Virus record (IMG/VR): IMGVR_UViG_2534682159_000005
Location: 1-6,238 of that record
From: a virus
Lineage: Duplodnaviria > Heunggongvirae > Uroviricota > Caudoviricetes
Length of the DNA stretch: 6,238 nucleotides
Direction: 5' to 3' (one strand)
Below the pieces are notes generated by a model, which saw only the letters and a list, made by a program, of their open reading frames with translations, made no database searches and was not told the origin of the DNA. The translations under genes and the position numbers were made by a program. Shown one piece after another: positions 1 to 6,238 of the stretch. Numbering within the stretch: the stretch's first letter is position 1; every line of letters starts with the position of its first letter.

Positions 1-324
1 GTCCACCAGATACTGGCTGGCCACGTACAATATTGATTTCATCAAACTGCTCATCGTCCATTAACAACCCCGCGTGCGTCAGCGCATCCAGCGGTGCTTT
101 CAGAATATTGTCCAGGTCACGGCGGCGCTTATCCGGTGGCTCTGCAATAATTTTTATTGCCAGCCGTCCGGACAGGCTTAATTTCAGTCGCTGCTGGCGA
201 ACAATAAGCGCCACTGCCCGGCGATAACCGCTCCCCGGCTTTTGATACAAAAATATGTGCTGCCACGGCGTCGCCAGTAAGTGTTCACCGTCGGCGGGTA
301 AGGTAAAACCAAATCTATGAGCAT
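1..324 (-). pseudogene. rusA: RusA-family Holliday-junction resolvase, reading frame apparently broken by two +1 frameshifts; 3' end runs off the window start
   Basis: Minus-strand ATG at 324-322 preceded by AAGAGG. The N-terminus MLIDLVLPYPPTVNTYWRRRGSTYF resembles the RusA N-terminus (LPWPPSNNRYYR..RG) and this frame stops at TGA 186-184. RusA-like sequence continues in the next frame (FVSKAGER) and then the third frame (YRRAVALIVRQQRLKLSLSGRLAIKIIAEPPDKRRRDLDNILKAPLDALTHAGLLMDDEQFDEINIVRGQPVSGG, open to position 1). This implies an extra base in the T5 run (plus-strand A-run 249-253) and another near 223-228. Confidence 0.55.
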
Positions 325-336
325 CAGTCACCTCTT

Positions 337-1386
337 TTACCCGAGCACGCCAGTCGCAAAGGCGTGATCAAGAAAACGAAAAATTAACTCAATCTGAGAG
401 CCGTACTTTTTCTCAAACTCCTGCGGGTCTGCATGAAGTTCGTTGTGGTGCTCCCGGCACAACGGTAGCGTGAAAATATCGTGGGCCTTTGTTCCCATTC
501 CCCCCTGACCATGACCAATCAGGTGATGCGGATCGTCAGCTGGCTTACCACAACACGCACACGGCTGTGTCTTTACCCAGCGCGTGTATTTCTCATTAAC
601 CCAACGGCGACGTTTAGGCCGCCTCATGAACGATTCAGGAGACTCCGGATCAACGGCGATACTGACAACCGTTTTTTTCTGTGGTGGATTTTGTTGCTGG
701 TGGACGTGAAGTGGCAGCGCAATATTTTTTGTGCGCTGCTTCAGTATGCTGATGGCTGTCTGTTCTCCCGGTACGATGTCACTCTCACGGTATACGGAGC
801 GGATTTTTTCCGCTGGTAATCCCAGCGAACGACGCGCTACTGCCTCAGGTAGTGCATCCACCACCTGATTGCAGGCCGCCCACCAGGATAATTCGGCCAG
901 CGATAACTCCCTCTCCTGCGTACCGCTTATTGCGTGACGGATGACATCAATCATCCAGGCAACCAGATTCTGCTGAGCAAGTTGATCGAGTGATTCTGAT
1001 GTCTGGTCGCGCAGCTGGTTGTCACAGTGCCAGCACAACACCATCGCGCCGGTACCATAACGGTGAATGACTGTTTCGCTGTGATGATAATCGCCGTGTG
1101 GCCACTGGCAGGATTTCACGTGACGTAATAACCAGTCAGACAGTGCACCTGCACCACCTGCTGCACGAATAACCCGCTCATCGCTGAAAAATGGCAGTAA
1201 TGTTTTATCCTCTGCCAGCGGCTGGCGAACGGCAGGAACGACTCCGGACGGCAGACCGCGCATGTTTTTCGGTTCCGGCTCCACCAGCACCCTGCCGCAA
1301 TGAAAAACAGGCCGTGATTCGCGTCCGGGCTTAAGGACCACCAGGCCAAGTTCCGGCACCAGAACAGGTCGAAGTAATACCCGCAC
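337..1386 (-). CDS. ydfU: YdfU-like DUF968 prophage protein (349 aa) with C-terminal Cys/His HNH-like zinc-binding motif
   Basis: 349-aa ORF from GTG at 1386 (GGAGG 4 nt upstream) to TAA at 339-337. The C-terminal motif CACCGKP..DPHHLIGHG..CREHHNELH is typical of DUF968/HNH-like prophage proteins. Length and position beside hokD and a Q-proximal resolvase match the Qin prophage ydfU; the symbol is from recollection, not a search. Confidence 0.75.
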   Translation of the reverse strand: MRVLLRPVLVPELGLVVLKPGRESRPVFHCGRVLVEPEPKNMRGLPSGVVPAVRQPLAEDKTLLPFFSDERVIRAAGGAGALSDWLLRHVKSCQWPHGDYHHSETVIHRYGTGAMVLCWHCDNQLRDQTSESLDQLAQQNLVAWMIDVIRHAISGTQERELSLAELSWWAACNQVVDALPEAVARRSLGLPAEKIRSVYRESDIVPGEQTAISILKQRTKNIALPLHVHQQQNPPQKKTVVSIAVDPESPESFMRRPKRRRWVNEKYTRWVKTQPCACCGKPADDPHHLIGHGQGGMGTKAHDIFTLPLCREHHNELHADPQEFEKKYGSQIELIFRFLDHAFATGVLG

Positions 1387-1387
1387 G

Positions 1388-1660
1388 TTACCTCCAGATA
1401 CGTTGCTGGAATGTGCGGGACGGACGCGGTGGATGTTCGGAATAAGGGAGCCTGACAGAGATTATCCAGTGACGATAATCGAGGCTGATGGCTTTCTTAA
1501 CCTCGTATCCGCGCCTGCGGTAACACTGAATCAGCCATTCGGCCTGTTCTTCAGTGCATGGGGGATGCTGGTACCAGTCGGTTTTAAATACGTGCGAATG
1601 CCGCCCCCGCTTAATGGCCGGGACGGCTTCAGAATTGTGGGATTTTATACGTTGCGCCAT
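1388..1660 (-). CDS. Small prophage protein of unknown function (90 aa from ATG 1660; the ORF extends to GTG at 1678)
   Basis: ATG at 1660-1658 preceded by GGAGAA with 4-nt spacing. The stop TAA 1390-1388 sits 1 nt before the ydfU-like GTG start, and the GGAGG for that gene lies in its last codons. Occupies the slot that rem holds next to hokD/ydfU in the Qin prophage, but the sequence identity is not verified. Confidence 0.55.
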   Translation of the reverse strand: MAQRIKSHNSEAVPAIKRGRHSHVFKTDWYQHPPCTEEQAEWLIQCYRRRGYEVKKAISLDYRHWIISVRLPYSEHPPRPSRTFQQRIWR

Positions 1661-1710
1661 CGGGTTCTCCGGTGACACAGCAGGTGCCAGTTGTTCAGGC
1701 CGGCGTGCGA

Positions 1711-1740
1711 ATTGTAAACCAGAATGCCAGGAAAAAACAA
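1711..1740 (-). promoter_or_regulatory. Candidate sigma70 promoter for the 90-aa/ydfU-like/rusA transcription unit
   Basis: Minus strand TTGTTT (1740-1735), 18-nt spacer, TACAAT (1716-1711), about 50 nt upstream of ATG 1660. The -35 is weak and overlaps the U-tract of the hokD terminator. Confidence 0.2.
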
Positions 1741-1758
1741 AACCCGCAGAAGCGGGTT
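1731..1758 (-). terminator. Rho-independent terminator downstream of hokD
   Basis: Minus strand AACCCGC-TTCT-GCGGGTT followed by TTGTTTTTT (7-bp GC-rich stem, 4-nt loop, U-tract). On the plus strand the same hairpin has no following T-run, so it is oriented for minus-strand transcripts. Confidence 0.7.
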
Positions 1759-1761
1759 AAG

Positions 1762-1786
1762 TGCGGGTGCGTTGAGGATGCCTGAC
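1762..1786 (-). promoter_or_regulatory. 3' UTR element complementary to the hok mRNA 5' leader (fbi-like fold-back element)
   Basis: Plus-strand 1761-1777 GTGCGGGTGCGTTGAGG is the inverted repeat of plus-strand 2140-2154 CCTCAAGCACCCGCA (15 of 16 with one bulge, extendable to about 25 nt with mismatches). Both lie inside the predicted hokD transcript. Confidence 0.45.
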
Positions 1787-1797
1787 ACATCAGAGGT

Positions 1798-1819
1798 GGC
1801 GAGGGATTTCTCCCTCGCC
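1798..1819 (-). other. Perfect 9-bp stem hairpin with tetraloop immediately 3' of the hokD stop codon
   Basis: Minus strand GGCGAGGGA-GAAA-TCCCTCGCC begins 8 nt after the hokD stop. No U-tract follows, so it is more likely an mRNA structural or stability element than a terminator. Confidence 0.4.
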
Positions 1820-1826
1820 GGGTCTC

Positions 1827-1982
1827 TTACTTCTCAGATTCGTAAGCTGTGAAGACAGCGACCTCCGTCTGGCCGGTTCGGATTCGTACCTCGCAGAGGT
1901 CTTTCCTCGTTACCAGTACCGTTACAACGACGGTAATACAGATGACGATCAGGGCGATTAGCATCGCCTTTTGCTGCTTCAT
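1827..1982 (-). CDS. hokD: Hok/Gef family type I toxin (51 aa), HokD/RelF-like
   Basis: MKQQKAMLIALIVICITVVVTVLVTRKDLCEVRIRTGQTEVAVFTAYESEK: single transmembrane helix followed by the conserved RKDLCEVRIR..EVAVF..YE Hok signature, near-identical in pattern to HokD of E. coli K-12 as I recall it. ATG at 1982-1980 with AGGAG 8 nt upstream. The track ORF (1827..2039) extends 19 codons upstream in frame, probably not used. Confidence 0.85.
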   Translation of the reverse strand: MKQQKAMLIALIVICITVVVTVLVTRKDLCEVRIRTGQTEVAVFTAYESEK

Positions 1983-1995
1983 AGCCTGCTGCTCC

Positions 1996-2024
1996 TTGCC
2001 TTTCGGCGCATAAGAGGCTAATCT
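1996..2024 (+). promoter_or_regulatory. Candidate antisense promoter at the hok start region (possible Sok-like antisense RNA)
   Basis: Plus strand TTGCCT (1996-2001), 17-nt spacer, TAATCT (2019-2024). It would drive a transcript antisense to the hok leader (about 2031 onward). No clean terminator was found, so this is weakly supported. Confidence 0.2.
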
Positions 2025-2130
2025 AAGTGTGCAAGTCATAGATATGGCCTCAGATTAATGTTAAGCGTCCTGCAAGACGCATAATGTTAACTGGGGCTTT
2101 TCTCTGTCTGCCTTACGTCGGCATGCCCGA

Positions 2131-2154
2131 GGCAGACAGCCTCAAGCACCCGCA
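2131..2154 (-). promoter_or_regulatory. 5' leader element of hokD mRNA complementary to the 3' UTR (tac-like fold-back element)
   Basis: Minus-strand leader TGCGGGTGCTTGAGG (2154-2140) pairs with the 3' UTR segment at 1762-1777. It lies just downstream of the candidate -10 TAGAAT and is followed by a 9-bp stem hairpin (2139-2104). Confidence 0.45.
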
Positions 2155-2157
2155 GCA

Positions 2158-2185
2158 ATTCTACTTAACTCTTCTTTCCCCGCAA
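2158..2185 (-). promoter_or_regulatory. Candidate sigma70 promoter for the hokD mRNA
   Basis: Minus strand TTGCGG (2185-2180), 16-nt spacer, TAGAAT (2163-2158). The predicted start near 2151 coincides with the 5' complementary element and gives a transcript of about 420 nt to the terminator at 1731, the size typical of hok mRNAs. Confidence 0.4.
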
Positions 2186-2192
2186 ACCGTTT

Positions 2193-2276
2193 TTATCCCC
2201 AGCGGCAAATCGAATACACCACCAGCGCCACCGCCATTGCAATTCCTACCGTTATGAACGCTTCAGGCCAGGTCAT
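2193..2276 (-). CDS. 27-aa hydrophobic single-helix peptide, translationally coupled to the upstream 171-aa gene (absent from the ORF track because of its size)
   Basis: MTWPEAFITVGIAMAVALVVYSICRWG. The ATG at 2276-2274 overlaps the TGA stop of the 171-aa gene (ATGA). It has a hydrophobic core with a basic/aromatic C-terminus and a TAA stop at 2195-2193. Confidence 0.45.
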   Translation of the reverse strand: MTWPEAFITVGIAMAVALVVYSICRWG

Positions 2277-2788
2277 CGTAAAATATTCTCCTCGTTTATC
2301 AGTCCGTTTCGCTTCAGGTAGTCCATCGCCTTATCCGGTAATTTGCAGTCCGGCTTCGCTTTTTTCAGTTGGCTGACCAGCCGTTTAACCCACATTGCTA
2401 ATTCGCTAACCTGATTGCCGGATGCTGGTGGATTGTCGGCTTTACCCAGAATGGCAGCACAGCAGGCCTCTCTGAGCACCCAGTCAACAGCATCCTTCCA
2501 TGCTCCTGTTTCGACTGGCGGATTCTCACGCTTTACCTGTTCATAAAAGCGCACAGCTTTAACCAGTCCTTCTGATGTCACCGGGACTGGCGGGCCGATG
2601 AATAAGGCCTGAATTTCATAGTTCGGCCTGTCGTTACAATCCTCTTTTGTCGGTACATATTTCCAGTCACCAGCCCACTGCTTCCCCTGAAAGTCTGTAA
2701 CGTCTTTTTTCACGTAGCGATATCGCCATGCAACTGGTTTTGCCTGCCCTGCCGTTTCATGCCCTTCCTGATAATTAATCTCGCTCAT
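2273..2788 (-). CDS. Hypothetical prophage protein (171 aa)
   Basis: ATG at 2788-2786 overlaps the stop of the upstream 58-aa gene (ATGA). Trp/Tyr-rich N-terminal half and a CC pair; no family recognised. Confidence 0.7.
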   Translation of the reverse strand: MSEINYQEGHETAGQAKPVAWRYRYVKKDVTDFQGKQWAGDWKYVPTKEDCNDRPNYEIQALFIGPPVPVTSEGLVKAVRFYEQVKRENPPVETGAWKDAVDWVLREACCAAILGKADNPPASGNQVSELAMWVKRLVSQLKKAKPDCKLPDKAMDYLKRNGLINEENILR

Positions 2789-2961
2789 TCATCGCCCCAC
2801 TCATCACAATATGCTTCGACCGGAGTTTTTCCTGCTTCATAGTCATCACGCCATGCTTCAGCATCGGCGGCACTTCCACCACGTAACTCTGCATAGTCCA
2901 TTAACAGTTCATGCCATTCTTCAAAACTGACGTTGTATTTAGTTGAACCAAAATCAGCCAT
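2785..2961 (-). CDS. Small acidic protein (58 aa), absent from the ORF track
   Basis: MADFGSTKYNVSFEEWHELLMDYAELRGGSAADAEAWRDDYEAGKTPVEAYCDEWGDE. ATG at 2961-2959 with AGGA 8 nt upstream. Its start overlaps the end of the 60-aa gene by 8 nt and its TGA stop overlaps the ATG of the 171-aa gene. Confidence 0.5.
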   Translation of the reverse strand: MADFGSTKYNVSFEEWHELLMDYAELRGGSAADAEAWRDDYEAGKTPVEAYCDEWGDE

Positions 2962-3136
2962 TTTGTTCTTCCTCTTCGTCTTTTATTTCGTGATATGAGT
3001 AATTGCAGTAGTTAAAGAAAATTTCTTTTGCTTCGTCATGAATTTCATCAGGTGTTGCGTCATCGTCCACTTCGAATACATCCTCAAAATCTCCACCGGC
3101 TATTCCCGTTTCAATAATTATTTTGAACTTTCGCAT
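2954..3136 (-). CDS. Small highly acidic protein (60 aa), AT-rich gene
   Basis: MRKFKIIIETGIAGGDFEDVFEVDDDATPDEIHDEAKEIFFNYCNYSYHEIKDEEEEQNG. It is the first ATG in frame after an upstream stop. GC content is visibly lower than the flanking genes, and a 92-bp intergenic region with a palindrome lies upstream. Confidence 0.6.
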   Translation of the reverse strand: MRKFKIIIETGIAGGDFEDVFEVDDDATPDEIHDEAKEIFFNYCNYSYHEIKDEEEEQNG

Positions 3137-3208
3137 TTCATTACCGCCCTGCCGGGCGGTCTCCTGATGTTCTGAGGGTGCAGAAATCCCTCCTGTTAAG
3201 GATTAATT

Positions 3209-3223
3209 TTTAGCAGTGCTAAA
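3209..3223. promoter_or_regulatory. 15-bp palindrome TTTAGCA-G-TGCTAAA in an AT-rich intergenic region (candidate operator/promoter element)
   Basis: Perfect 7-bp arms around one central base, in the 92-bp gap between the 118-aa gene stop (3229) and the 60-aa gene start (3136). Flanked by A/T-rich sequence with -10-like hexamers (TAAAAT). Confidence 0.35.
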
Positions 3224-3228
3224 TTTAA

Positions 3229-3585
3229 TTATTCAGTTCTGGATTTTGTCGCCCTGCGTATCCGCGCTTTCGCGTTACGCTCAATCTGAATTAGCTTTCC
3301 TATATTTTTTCGCCTTTCCTGTTCCTCCAGGCGCAATAGCTTTACATCATCTGCCAGTCTGGTTTCTCTTTTCGCCACAGAGAGCATCCAGTCAAACGGC
3401 TCCACAACTGAACCGCAGATTTTACAGCGGACCTGACGCTCTTTTTCGTCAACCCGAACAGAGGCGTGATGACAATATGGTCTTTCCGATGGCTCATAAA
3501 GAAAATTAACCTGATTACGAGGGTCATCCTCTTTTACCGGAAATAAAACGATATTGCTTAACTCATCCTCTGGTTTTATTTCCAT
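3229..3585 (-). CDS. Zinc-ribbon protein with basic coiled-coil tail (118 aa), function unknown
   Basis: ATG at 3585-3583 with AAGGAGAGGAG just upstream. C-x-H-H ... C-K-I-C-G spacing suggests a zinc ribbon, and the C-terminus is Arg/Lys/Glu-rich. Overlaps the end of the upstream gene by 23 nt. Confidence 0.7.
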   Translation of the reverse strand: MEIKPEDELSNIVLFPVKEDDPRNQVNFLYEPSERPYCHHASVRVDEKERQVRCKICGSVVEPFDWMLSVAKRETRLADDVKLLRLEEQERRKNIGKLIQIERNAKARIRRATKSRTE

Positions 3586-4024
3586 GCTCCTCTCCTTTGA
3601 TGCGAATGCCAGCGACGCGTAATGCGTGTTCTAGGTCAATCAGGTAAAGCCAACTGCCATTTTCTTTAGGTATCATGACTTGTCGCTCATCTGCATTTAT
3701 CGGGTGTCCATATCGAAGGTCGTAGCGAGTCGGTAATTGAACTTCCCGCGCTTCCAGTTCAGCAATGCGCTTACTCCCATCCGAGATAACACCTTCGTAA
3801 TACTCACGTTGCTCGTTGAGTTGTGATTTTGCTTCTTCCAGTCCATCCAGCAAATCAGCGATAATATCCGCTTCCCGATGACGGATGTGACGCTTAAACG
3901 CAGCAAGAGCCGCATCACAATCCCGTTCAGCATTTGGGCTGTCCGGGATAGCCTGATACCACGCCAGCGTCGACTGATAGTTTTGTGCTGCCTCACGAAG
4001 CGCCTCATAGTTAACCTCTCTCAT
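3563..4024 (-). CDS. Ea22-like (ead/Ea22-like family) coiled-coil prophage protein (153 aa)
   Basis: The ATG at 4024-4022 overlaps the TGA stop of the DUF4406 gene (ATGA). The N-terminal NYEALREAA and central AELEAREV coiled-coil segment resemble Ea22-like prophage proteins; assignment is from memory. Confidence 0.65.
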   Translation of the reverse strand: MREVNYEALREAAQNYQSTLAWYQAIPDSPNAERDCDAALAAFKRHIRHREADIIADLLDGLEEAKSQLNEQREYYEGVISDGSKRIAELEAREVQLPTRYDLRYGHPINADERQVMIPKENGSWLYLIDLEHALRVAGIRIKGEEHGNKTRG

Positions 4025-4317
4025 TGAGCCACCTCCTGATAAATCACCGCATGCCCCAGTTTCTCCGCCAGTGCCAGCTCTGCCTTAGCACCCGCTGACC
4101 GCTGCCAGCCATTCAGCATGTAAATCGCATCCACACAACGAATCATTGCCATGCAAATATCCATGTAGTGCGGCTGTGTCAGCCCGTCCGGAAGTACTGC
4201 CGGGTTTAAGACGGTATGCCCTTCCCGTTTCAGTGCTTCTTCCGCCCTGTGAAATGCCTCGCGGTTGAAATTTTCATATCCCGTCATTGGACCGGCGATA
4301 TAAATTCTCACCCTCAC
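4021..4317 (-). CDS. DUF4406 protein (nucleoside 2-deoxyribosyltransferase-like fold), 98 aa
   Basis: MRVRIYIAGPMTG..FNREAFHRAEEALKREGHTVLNPA..YMDICMAMIRCVDAIYMLNGWQRSAGAKAELALAEKLGHAV matches the DUF4406 signature (IAGPMTG, NPA, LxGWxxSxGA). The GTG start at 4317-4315 has AGGAGG 8 nt upstream and overlaps the TGA stop of the HTH gene (GTGA). Confidence 0.85.
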   Translation of the reverse strand: MRVRIYIAGPMTGYENFNREAFHRAEEALKREGHTVLNPAVLPDGLTQPHYMDICMAMIRCVDAIYMLNGWQRSAGAKAELALAEKLGHAVIYQEVAQ

Positions 4318-4595
4318 GCCTGAACCCTCCTGTCGAAATAAACGTAGTTATTCACTATGCGCAGCGGCATGCCTAATTTTCTGGCAATTTCCCTTCTTTG
4401 CATGCCTCTCTGATGCAGTTGCCGCGCCAGCTCAATATCACGCTGAGAATATTTTGCCGACGGGTGAAAATCACCACGTAACATCATGCTGATGCCCAGC
4501 TCCCGTGCCTTCGTTCTCACTGCCGCTTCAGTTCGTCCGATAAGTGCGCCAATGCTTTTTACCTTCATCGTTCCCGCACACTGCCGGAGTATCAT
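4314..4595 (-). CDS. Small helix-turn-helix DNA-binding protein (about 93 aa); start uncertain
   Basis: Two HTH-like segments (KSIGALIGRTEAAVRTKARELGI and MQRREIARKLGMPLRIVNNYV, the second resembling NinH/Fis-type HTH). The track ORF starts at 4718 inside the upstream gene. Candidate starts are ATG 4595, ATG 4568, or GTG 4631 (which overlaps the upstream TGA stop). Confidence 0.55.
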   Translation of the reverse strand: MILRQCAGTMKVKSIGALIGRTEAAVRTKARELGISMMLRGDFHPSAKYSQRDIELARQLHQRGMQRREIARKLGMPLRIVNNYVYFDRRVQA

Positions 4596-4627
4596 GATTT
4601 CCGCCCGGCACCACGTCTTCCACCCAC

Positions 4628-5344
4628 TCACCGCTGCTGTTCTCTGGTGGCGGTAATATCCCGGAGAATATCCCGGCACTTGTTCAGCTCCCGCAGCGCG
4701 GCGCAGACTCGCTCCCACTTCTGAACCTGACCTTTTGCCCGGCGCAGCTCGCGGTTAGCCACATGCAGCGATGGTAGAATCAGGTCATCTGCTTTCGTTT
4801 CGGTGACCGATGGCTGTAACTTCACAATGTCTTCCACGATTTCTGTTTTCATTTCTTCCTGTGTCGTCGTTTCCTGGACTGGTAACGCAACACCTGCTGG
4901 CTGAGGAAAGGCTTTACCATCGGTTTCCGCTACGGATGCAGCTTCCGGCTCTGCCGGTAAATCAGCGCCCGGTATGCAGTAACGAAATTTACCGCCCTGA
5001 TTCACGCGAATCAGACGCCCTTTGCTGATTGCCATGGCCAGCGATGAATTCGCCCGGCGGGAGGTAATCCCGAACATCAGTGCCAGCTCATCCGCCGTTT
5101 GTGGGCCATGTTGTTCAATCGCCTCAGTCAGCATTTGCGCTGTCACTTTCGGTACCGGTGACACTGGTTCACTTTCACCTGCCTGAGTCAGCCACCACAT
5201 CGACCCCTTGTTATCCGCTTCACCACGGCGCTTCAGTTTCCACAGTTCGTTGACCGCATCTTCACGGCTGATTCCAAGGCGGGCCGCCACTACCTGTGAA
5301 GAGGCTCTTTTCAGTGCTTTCAGTGCGTCAAATACGGTTTCCAT
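4628..5344 (-). CDS. Prophage protein with two winged-helix-like domains and an acidic linker (238 aa)
   Basis: The track ORF starts at TTG 5362, but ATG 5344-5342 has GGAGG 8 nt upstream. Two HTH-like segments ([25 protein letters not shown] and [31 protein letters not shown]). Sits 33 nt downstream of the P-like gene, the slot occupied by ren in lambda. Confidence 0.7.
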
Positions 5345-5377
5345 TAAAATTTCCTCCGACAAAATCGTTTCCCAGAT

Positions 5378-6040
5378 TCAAATAAAACCAGCAGCCTTCC
5401 GGCGTTCGTATTCCTGTTTCAGCCGTTCAATTGGCGTTGGCCCTTTCGGGTGTTTCGCCCCTTCCAGTTGTCGTCGCACTGGCGGAACACTCATCCCGTT
5501 ACCAACATGCTTTGCCCATTTCGTCAGTTGCCGTTCCGCAAGTCGTTTTAACTCACCCTGCGTCATCTGGCGCTCAATCCCTCTGGTACGCATTTCGAGG
5601 CAGATGTGGTACAGCACAGGCTGTGGCCACGGGTATTTATCACTCCCGTCGTATCGCCAGGATTCATTGCGCCAGCGCCGGTACTCTTCCATCACGGCAT
5701 CCACCGTAAGACCAAATGGATTTGCCCCACTCTCCGAAATCAGCGCAACAAACTCAGCCAGGTCCGGGGGCCACGTTTCACCCGCCCGGCAGCGGTCCAT
5801 GCACTGACGACAGACCTGCCGGATTTGCTGTTCAGTCATCGCACCAATCTGGGCAATCCAGAGCTTCGAAGGTGCGGCCCCGTTCTTCTGAGTCCAGCGG
5901 TTCGAATACACCTCCCCCATAAGCTCCCACAGCTTCCAGGCCGTTTCCGTTGCTGATAAATCCGTTTTCACGTTCCCACTGTTCGCGTGCTGCCCGGATT
6001 TCCTGAACTGCCCGTGATGCCGTGCCACCTGATGCTGCAT
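5378..6040 (-). CDS. Lambda P-like replication protein (DnaB helicase loader); N-terminal boundary uncertain
   Basis: The C-terminal two thirds align by motif with lambda P (P..FVA.. segment, then YPW...Y...M....T..EL.R.A..L). ATG 6040 has AGGGGG 6 nt upstream, and an alternative ATG at 5920 has GGGAG upstream. The 5' 209 nt overlap the upstream gene in another frame. Confidence 0.7.
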
Positions 6041-6238
6041 GGCTTACCCCCTTGCTGACTGGTTTTACCTGTGCCCTGACGTGCTGCACGTGACGGGCAA
6101 ATTTCTGCTCCCACTGAACCTGCGTGAAAACCTTCCCCTCCGCCATCCAGTAATCCCGGAATGCGGCAAGCTCAGCAGGTGTAAATTCCGGCTCAGGCAG
6201 AGCCATACCCCACACTGCTGCCCGTTGTCGAAAATCCG
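5832..6238 (-). CDS. Replication initiator / replisome organiser with DnaT-like C-terminal domain (partial; 5' end beyond the window)
   Basis: The frame is open to the window edge. [42 protein letters not shown] closely parallels the E. coli DnaT C-terminal domain ([41 protein letters not shown]) as I recall it. It lies immediately upstream of the P-like gene, the position of O. Confidence 0.7.

Follow-up and report, generated by a model that had tools for sequence, protein, structure and literature searches.

The window analysed here, a stretch of 6,238 nucleotides (nt) that spans positions 1 to 6,238 of the IMG/VR virus record IMGVR_UViG_2534682159_000005 (Caudoviricetes), derives from a lambdoid prophage of Shiga-toxigenic E. 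coli, in which it makes up the early-right (nin) region, and its minus strand contains a reading frame for a peptide of only 27 residues. The gene, here termed ORF27 (2276..2193 (-)), reads ATG ACC TGG ... GGA TAA, its translation is MTWPEAFITVGIAMAVALVVYSICRWG, and it is wedged between a longer gene of the early operon and the promoter of hok. There is little doubt that ORF27 is a genuine gene, and comparison of its variants at the sequence level shows that its peptide is under purifying selection. The explanation that best accounts for the observations as a whole, and which is considered moderately probable, is that of a true phage gene, coupled in the early operon, whose 27-residue product would be a single-pass protein of the inner membrane.

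The open reading frame (ORF) was brought to attention by a first-pass annotation of the window, which described 27 codons whose ATG overlaps the TGA of the preceding gene, and this is indeed the arrangement observed. The two codons have a TG in common (ATG at 2276-2274, TGA at 2275-2273) and form an ATGA overlap at 2273..2276 (-), a site for termination-reinitiation coupling. The upstream gene codes for 171 amino acids (aa) (2788..2273 (-); phrog_660, function unknown), and is the third in a chain of overlapping cistrons (3136..2954, 2961..2785, 2788..2273 and 2276..2193) that ends with ORF27. Within the 3' end of the 171-aa gene, 11 nt before the ATG, lies a hexamer that resembles a Shine-Dalgarno (SD) sequence, GAGGAG (2293..2288 (-)).

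These coupling signals are retained among homologous loci. The start overlap is found in 45 of 46 distinct leaders (ATGA in 44 and GTGA in one), and an SD core positioned 5-11 nt before the start is also present in 45 of the 46, as opposed to 23% of shuffled leaders. The upstream partners, however, are of at least five kinds: the 171-aa family of the window (ending ..ILR), DUF551 (..EPPQEVNQ), L0139 of phage 933W (..NIEQKVNQ), a gene ending ..GGHEEGDK and gp123 of phage Av-05. By BLASTP, the 171-aa protein of the window exhibits no similarity to the DUF551, L0139 or Av-05 partner. In 933W, an intact 27-codon ORF (MTWPEAFANVGTVMAVVLVVYSICRWR) is ATGA-coupled to the different gene, L0139. The DUF551 and L0139-type proteins both end in ..QEVNQ because both carry the SD-bearing ORF27 leader CAGGAGGTGAATCAATGA, and the occurrence of this leader behind unrelated partners thus places a mosaic joint some 15-20 nt before the ATG. 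In the homologous leaders (2277-2300 of the window, and loci L002, L008 and L138), the last codons of the upstream gene are themselves the ORF27 leader, such that the small gene imposes the C-terminus on the protein that precedes it.

Selection on the reading frame was assessed from loci collected in two ways, namely by an anchor in the hok leader, which is unbiased toward the ORF, and by a degenerate ORF pattern; three phage records were added. The pooled loci comprise 71 distinct 84-nt variants, 63 of which are intact, and the length is 27 codons in nearly all copies, with one sub-variant of 25 codons. The most diverged copy (MNWPEAFAITGVAMAIAFLVYVICRWG), which stands behind DUF551, differs from that of the window at 27 of 81 bases. 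According to the Nei-Gojobori method, the proportions of synonymous (pS) and non-synonymous (pN) differences between these two copies are 0.735 and 0.212, which corresponds to a dN/dS of ~0.09, while the other two sense frames yield 0.77 and 2.0. Between sub-lineages, dN/dS ranges from 0.09 to 0.21 in the ORF27 frame and from ~0.6 to 2.6 in the other sense frames. When the 63 intact variants are placed on a neighbor-joining tree, parsimony counts 107 synonymous changes over 18.7 sites and 92 non-synonymous changes over 59.3 sites, and the tree-based omega is ~0.27 (binomial p = 1.5e-19), such counts being inflated by homoplasy and recombination and the p-value only indicative. The substitutions cluster at the third positions of the minus-strand frame, and the exchanges among I, V, L and F are conservative. 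The first-pass annotation had regarded the ORF as a real coupled gene, and had named an interrupted frame or a lack of coding-type conservation in homologous prophages as grounds for abandoning it; the largely intact set of variants, their synonymous-biased change and the retention of the 4-nt overlap and SD behind unrelated upstream genes all support its proposal.

The same data bear on the view that ORF27 is not a separate gene, its conservation being that of an upstream part of the hok promoter, of an antisense gene on the plus strand or of a transmembrane (TM) tail which is added to the upstream protein by frameshifting. Positions -40 to -60 of the hok promoter overlap with the 3' half of the ORF, a part which hardly varies among the copies that adjoin hok, yet the ORF is also conserved in contexts which lack any hok promoter, and a pure promoter element was rejected. 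The plus-strand frame that has its third positions in common with ORF27 is mostly open (stops in 3 of 63 variants) and scores an omega of 0.31, as the geometry of the two frames predicts. In view of this similar omega, the choice of strand rests on the start, the stop, the SD, the module boundaries and the hydrophobic pattern, and not on dN/dS alone. Neither a start nor a stop is conserved in the plus-strand frame, which continues into sequence antisense to upstream genes that vary from locus to locus, and an antisense gene was therefore rejected; both the third-position change of the minus-strand frame and its conservative exchanges also speak against it. The NCBI annotation pipeline PGAP occasionally calls forms of 40-45 aa from an in-frame ATG inside the upstream (DUF551) gene (e.g., WP_250221393.1), which might be taken to favor a continuous product. 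In the window, however, a TGA interrupts the ORF27 frame 13 codons before the ATG, and the interval contains no slippery heptamer (X XXY YYZ); a programmed frameshift onto ORF27 was thus also rejected. Taken together, the absence of a separate gene is scarcely credible.

An additional line of evidence is provided by the boundaries of homology. In a megablast comparison with phage genomes, the homology of the 933W hokW/sokW region to the window starts at query base 625, which is the A of the ORF27 ATG, and homology ends at the ORF27 stop codon in at least six downstream contexts. In the window, the stop codon precedes the hok promoter; elsewhere, it is followed by a second small TM ORF ahead of a palindrome and hok, by an intrinsic terminator (CCCCGGATTGATGGTCCGGGGTTTTT), by the sequence upstream of xis (VT1-Sakai) or by one of several other sequences. 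The stop is derived from GGA TAA, GGT TGA or GGG TGA according to the context, and the length of 27 codons is kept. In the window, the stop codon is contributed by an A-rich stretch, GATAAAAACGG, which is also found ahead of the -35 in hok loci of other classes. The last bases of ORF27 (GGA TAA AAA CGG) coincide with this stretch, and coding and promoter-upstream sequence therefore overlap. As is typical of functional units in mosaic lambdoid genomes, the block of homology extends, in many contexts, from just before the SD of ORF27 as far as its stop.

The homologue in the virulent Vequintavirinae phage Av-05 (KM190144, 121 kb) extends this pattern to a different type of phage. The copy is intact (MTWPEAFTTVGVVMAVAFAVYSVCRWG; locus L139, 1501-1584 (+)), is ATGA-coupled to an unrelated 220-aa gene and exhibits many synonymous differences, and no hok was found either in the 70 nt that follow it or among the features annotated within 1.5 kb downstream. 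Its presence in this phage argues for a putative role in lytic growth rather than in lysogeny. A gene of fewer than 30 codons can be recovered from mosaic boundaries and codon-level conservation alone, which renders the locus a clean example for annotation, and sequence that was taken to be merely upstream of the hok promoter proves to be coding.

The first-pass annotation also expected the gene to be missed by annotation pipelines, and the public records bear this out. Several complete genomes are 100% identical to the window over the 1,101 bases compared (1800-2900), yet RefSeq contains no coding sequence (CDS) for ORF27 in an identical genome, and lists 'none' under the 3' half of the ORF and the promoter. 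The homologous ORF is unannotated also in 933W, Stx2 phage II, VT1-Sakai and Av-05, and a few GenBank submitters have called a 27-aa hypothetical protein (e.g., ASI51702.1 and AOM45384.1, the latter as 'bacteriophage protein'). The Pfam search yielded no match to ORF27, and the NCBIfam search yielded only sub-threshold compositional matches, such as that to KdpF (E = 0.029, 14 bits versus a cut-off of 27). Among the PHROGs, the matches were weak, sub-threshold and unconvincing (phrog_4612, E = 0.0087, and phrog_38566, E = 0.0065, both of unknown function). A protein cluster which joins the 27-aa peptide with 121-aa DUF551 proteins was dismissed as an artefact: the two share no similarity, and the DUF551 gene is the overlapping upstream neighbor, such that partial or extended calls bridge both. 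In the full text of the literature searched, neither the peptide nor five fragments of it appear, and the study of hokW-sokW (PMC8621323) makes no mention of an upstream ORF. ORF27 is thus a new small-protein family, which belongs to no curated family and is essentially unannotated. In Shiga-toxin phages such as 933W, Sp5 and VT1-Sakai, which are of medical importance, the early operons thereby gain a conserved, predicted small membrane protein, and published deletions or clones of hokW-sokW could remove or include its gene.

The peptide is composed of a short polar N-end (WPEAF), a hydrophobic helix (residues 7-24) with the small residues G11, A13, A15 and A17, a conserved Y21 and a C-terminal ICRWG. 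The single transmembrane helix attributed to it in the first-pass annotation is in line with the Kyte-Doolittle and Hessa scales, the helix call being a hydrophobicity-scale calculation and not the output of a dedicated predictor. The window peptide has a mean Kyte-Doolittle value of 2.38 (19 residues) and a summed Hessa-scale energy of -1.0 kcal/mol; among five sub-lineages, the corresponding values range from 2.0 to 2.45 and from -1.8 to +1.5 kcal/mol. In the 39 distinct peptides, E5 and A6 are invariant, as is M1 by virtue of being the start codon, while G11, Y21, R25 and W26 are each kept in 38, and W3, P4, F7 and C24 in 37. Positions 8-10 and the interior of the helix vary among I, V, L, F, A and T. 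The placement of E5 at the N-end and R25 at the C-end weakly suggests an N-out/C-in topology.

The following course of events would be consistent with these features. Upon transcription of the early (nin-region) operon, ribosomes that complete the 171-aa gene would terminate at its TGA and reinitiate at the ATG that overlaps it, aided by the SD of ORF27 itself. The gene would have no promoter of its own, and its product would be made during lytic growth or induction and inserted in the inner membrane as a single helix. This helix may then bind and modulate another membrane protein, of either host or phage origin, rather than cause non-specific membrane damage. Specific helix-helix contacts are proposed because the small-residue face (G11, A13, A15 and A17) and the sequence-specific ends (WPEAF, Y21 and ICRWG) would be needless for a non-specific disruptor; by analogy with known proteins, this mode of action is put forward tentatively, as a possibility that falls short of an even chance.

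Several small proteins provide precedents for such a role. MgrB, AcrZ, KdpF, MgtS and PmrR are enterobacterial proteins of fewer than 50 residues, with one TM helix and short polar ends, which are often unannotated and exert their effect on a larger membrane protein through helix-helix contact. ORF27 resembles them in its size, its helix and its conserved small-residue face, but has no sequence relationship to them, and is phage-borne and operon-coupled. Among known systems, ORF27 would work most like these small single-pass enterobacterial membrane proteins (MgrB, AcrZ, KdpF and MgtS). The first-pass annotation had pointed to a similarity to small membrane toxins or modulators, to which the sequence lends no support, since no homology to any such family was detected. 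In its genomic logic, ORF27 is most like YdfD, the 63-aa membrane lysis protein of the Qin prophage. YdfD, too, is a small membrane protein encoded at the end of a prophage early operon, and its gene starts with a 4-nt overlap on the one before it (the last base of dicB in K-12 is 1649797, and the first of ydfD is 1649794), although it is longer and has no sequence similarity to ORF27, which is itself absent from Qin. Indeed, no homologue of ORF27 was found in the DLP12, Rac or Qin prophages of K-12, the three that were checked, and this absence is probably the reason why the small-protein surveys of K-12 never met it.

The distribution of the family was surveyed by megablast with three sub-lineage queries against 5,426 complete E. 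coli genomes. The window type occurs at 1,595 places in 1,249 genomes, the diverged type that is linked to DUF551 at 1,466 places in 674 genomes and the VT1-Sakai type at 549 places in 485 genomes, amounting together to ~3,600 copies. In a scan of one genome per species with a degenerate pattern, true copies were confined to E. coli, Shigella flexneri and a 1.8-kb contig in a metagenome-assembled genome of Segatella, the latter being probably a binning error; the other ten matches of the pattern had the wrong spacing and were discarded as chance. One partial Salmonella entry exists, and weak tblastn matches in Salmonella phages (E = 0.9-7) were set aside as unreliable. The family looks restricted to phages of Escherichia and Shigella. 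A record with an unexpected host attribution, PP818812.1 ('Actinobacillus phage vB_Apl-pPE4'), is 91% identical to the window segment over 96% of the 1.1-kb query.

Several points weigh against the preferred explanation of a coupled gene for a membrane protein with a partner of its own. The SD of the window is placed 11 nt from the start, a spacing that is longer than optimal, and 8 of the 71 distinct variants are disrupted, including three independent nonsense changes at Trp3. The antisense frame, as described above, scores nearly as low an omega as ORF27 itself. The peptide is absent from the supplements of two ribosome-profiling papers on enterohemorrhagic E. coli (PMC5597208, PMC4765031), which may not list such a peptide. 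The mode of action is derived from motif conservation and analogy only, and partner binding is putative. Finally, the linkage to hok is strong, and the function of ORF27 may be tied to Hok, a connection that the preferred explanation does not need.

As for the disrupted variants, they include nonsense changes at Trp3 (TGG to TAG or TGA; n=3) and Trp26 (n=1) and loss of the start by a 1-nt deletion (n=2). The nonsense variants imply that loss of ORF27 is tolerated in some prophages, and its repeated loss at Trp3 may reflect either mutational bias or counter-selection.

The linkage to hok is evident at the joint itself. The hok promoter region (2152..2192 (-)) follows ORF27 directly, with a -35 (TTTGCG/TTGCGG) at 2186..2180, a -10 (TAGAAT) at 2163..2158 and a transcript start at ~2151; the region was aligned with the hok loci of 933W and Rac, and the hexamers were placed from the known 5' end of the hok mRNA. 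The first-pass annotation had the ORF end 8 nt before a candidate -35 of hokD. Of this, the adjacency is firmly retained, whereas the measured spacing between the stop and the -35 is 6-7 nt; likewise, the promoter is that of a hok gene, but one of the prophage hokD/hokW-like type and not the K-12 hokD itself. The exact joint between ORF27 and the hok promoter is present in 1,039 of the 5,426 genomes, compared to the 1,249 that carry the window-type ORF, such that this type adjoins hok in most of its genomes; of the various sequences that follow ORF27, the hok/sok locus is the most frequent. In a sample of hok loci from viral contigs (n=118), hok is preceded by an ORF27-family gene in 60 and by a different small TM ORF alone in 24, and the remaining 34 lack both; a small TM ORF thus stands just upstream of the hok promoter in 71% of these loci. 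A diverged copy of ORF27 is also found near hok, with the second small TM ORF between them. In the viral sample anchored on the ORF, however, about half of the loci have no hok within 400 nt, as is the case for 55 of the 67 that were newly found, and overall roughly half of the ORF27 copies are hok-linked. The linkage is therefore strong but not obligatory, and ORF27 is not simply part of the hok locus.

The second family of small TM ORFs is located directly upstream of the hok promoter in other prophages (locus L008, ~2630-2800 (-); locus L007, ~8383-8472 (+)). It occurs as a 34-aa form, MSDDISLAMEGALAVIAVVGVYCLVVFLMDRLGN, with the pattern MSDDISLAMEGALAV[IV]AVVGVYCLVVFLMDRLGN followed by the palindrome CGATATGGGAATTCCCATATCG, and as a 29-aa form, MLVLKCALAIAAVMAIYCLAVVLMDRLSD. 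Some 1,000 contigs carry the 34-aa form as an annotated hypothetical protein, and fragments of the second family were likewise absent from the full text of the literature searched. In protein clusters, the 34-aa peptide was grouped with a 789-aa xanthine dehydrogenase to which it bears no similarity, a clustering artefact for very short sequences. The two families have in common their position relative to the hok promoter, a similar size and a single hydrophobic helix with a V/I-Y-C motif, but they differ in their ends, and the helix of the second family runs past the Tyr. They can stand in tandem and are thus not alternatives to one another, and their mutual homology is not established.

These associations raise the main rival explanation, in which the function of ORF27 is tied to Hok, either as a co-toxin or lysis helper or as a protein-level brake or immunity factor, and in which ORF27, hok and sok act as one module at induction. 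The frequency of the exact joint, the small TM ORFs that precede most of the sampled hok promoters and the diverged copy near hok are all in keeping with such a tie. So is the timing: HokW is made after induction, the phase in which ORF27 is expected to be expressed, and helps growth arrest and phage release, according to the only functional study of a phage hok of the window type (PMC8621323). Against this stand the hok-free copies, which are found before a terminator, before xis in VT1-Sakai and in Av-05, as well as the lack of a nearby hok in about half of the ORF-anchored sample. The linkage across genomes may, moreover, reflect the shared descent of one successful module. On balance, a tie to Hok is rather unlikely. 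A more specific version, in which the upstream small TM peptides (ORF27 and the 29/34-aa family) are protein partners of Hok, restraining it or co-assembling with it to time the collapse of the membrane at phage release, is less likely still; were it true, the RNA-controlled hok/sok pair would be a three-part module in phages. In either case, a testable link is raised between small membrane peptides and Hok-assisted release of phage.

The proximity to hok also invites the proposal that ORF27 is a stand-alone membrane-damaging toxin, akin to those of type I systems, whose peptide kills or depolarizes the cell. Type I toxins such as TisB, DinQ, ShoB, Ibs and Ldr are hydrophobic peptides of 19-35 residues, each expressed from its own promoter, with the SD masked by a structured 5' untranslated region (UTR) and a small RNA encoded antisense or nearby. 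ORF27 is of the same size class, has a hydrophobic helix and adjoins a type I toxin locus, and its recurrent inactivation at Trp3 could be the result of counter-selection against a harmful product. Unlike these toxins, however, its SD is exposed and its 4-nt overlap, kept in nearly all distinct leaders, couples it to the upstream gene, with neither a separate promoter nor a long sequestering 5' UTR. No Rfam antisense RNA family was matched over 2193-2276, nor was a promoter-like site found on either strand, although the consensus scan (1650-2450) found nothing at all and missed the hok and sok promoters too, and is therefore uninformative on promoters here. Hok itself, the neighbor of ORF27 in the window, is likewise a small peptide of the inner membrane, the location predicted for ORF27; it carries a conserved Cys, as ORF27 does, and is expressed at prophage induction. 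ORF27 nevertheless has no match to PF01848, is half the length of Hok/Gef proteins (~50 aa) and lacks a periplasmic domain, a mok-type leader frame, a fold-back mRNA and, as far as the Rfam comparison shows, an antisense RNA. Together with the absence of similarity to any Pfam or NCBIfam family and the sequence-specific conservation of the polar ends, these differences make a toxin of this kind improbable.

In yet another scenario, it is the act of translation that matters and the peptide is incidental. Ribosomes on ORF27 would keep transcription of the early operon coupled to translation as far as the hok promoter and thereby prevent Rho termination. After induction, polymerase that reads through into hok/sok would then silence the sok promoter, which is convergent. 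The short distance from the stop of ORF27 to the hok -35 and the lack of any terminator-like signal between ORF27 and hok are compatible with this scenario, which would also explain why sokW RNA vanishes rapidly and in a RecA-dependent manner after prophage induction, an observation that its authors left unexplained (PMC8621323). It does not, however, account for an amino-acid sequence under purifying selection (dN/dS ~0.1-0.3), with residues conserved across sub-lineages, or for the maintenance of the ORF in hok-free contexts, including directly before an intrinsic terminator. A role of translation alone is thus very unlikely, and the coupled gene for a single-pass membrane protein remains the preferred explanation.

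With regard to the rest of the locus, all of the window genes are carried on the minus strand, namely genes for replication, several successive small genes without a known function, the hok/mok/sok locus, DUF968 and RusA. The leader of the hok mRNA, with the sok antisense region (1977..2151 (-)), matches the Rfam family RF01794 (sok; 113 bits, E = 7.5e-27), the model starting at 2151. A mok-like frame of 70 aa (1827..2039 (-)) contains hok itself (1982..1827 (-)), a 51-aa Hok/Gef protein which is called as a CDS by PGAP and matches PF01848 (E = 3.9e-23). Downstream of hok, there is a terminator-like hairpin with a T run (1758..1741 (-)), and a weak isrK-like Rfam match (1737-1818 (-); 29 bits versus a gathering score of 50, E = 0.0003), located between hok and the next gene, overlaps this hairpin. 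On the plus strand, an ORF at 2084-2257 lies antisense to both the hok leader and ORF27; it codes for 57 aa in the window and for 249 aa in 933W-type phages (locus L137, 201-950 (-)). In Stx2 phage II, it is annotated as a CDS (BAC78054.1, 'ORF C38'), a call which is probably spurious and conceals the genuine small gene.

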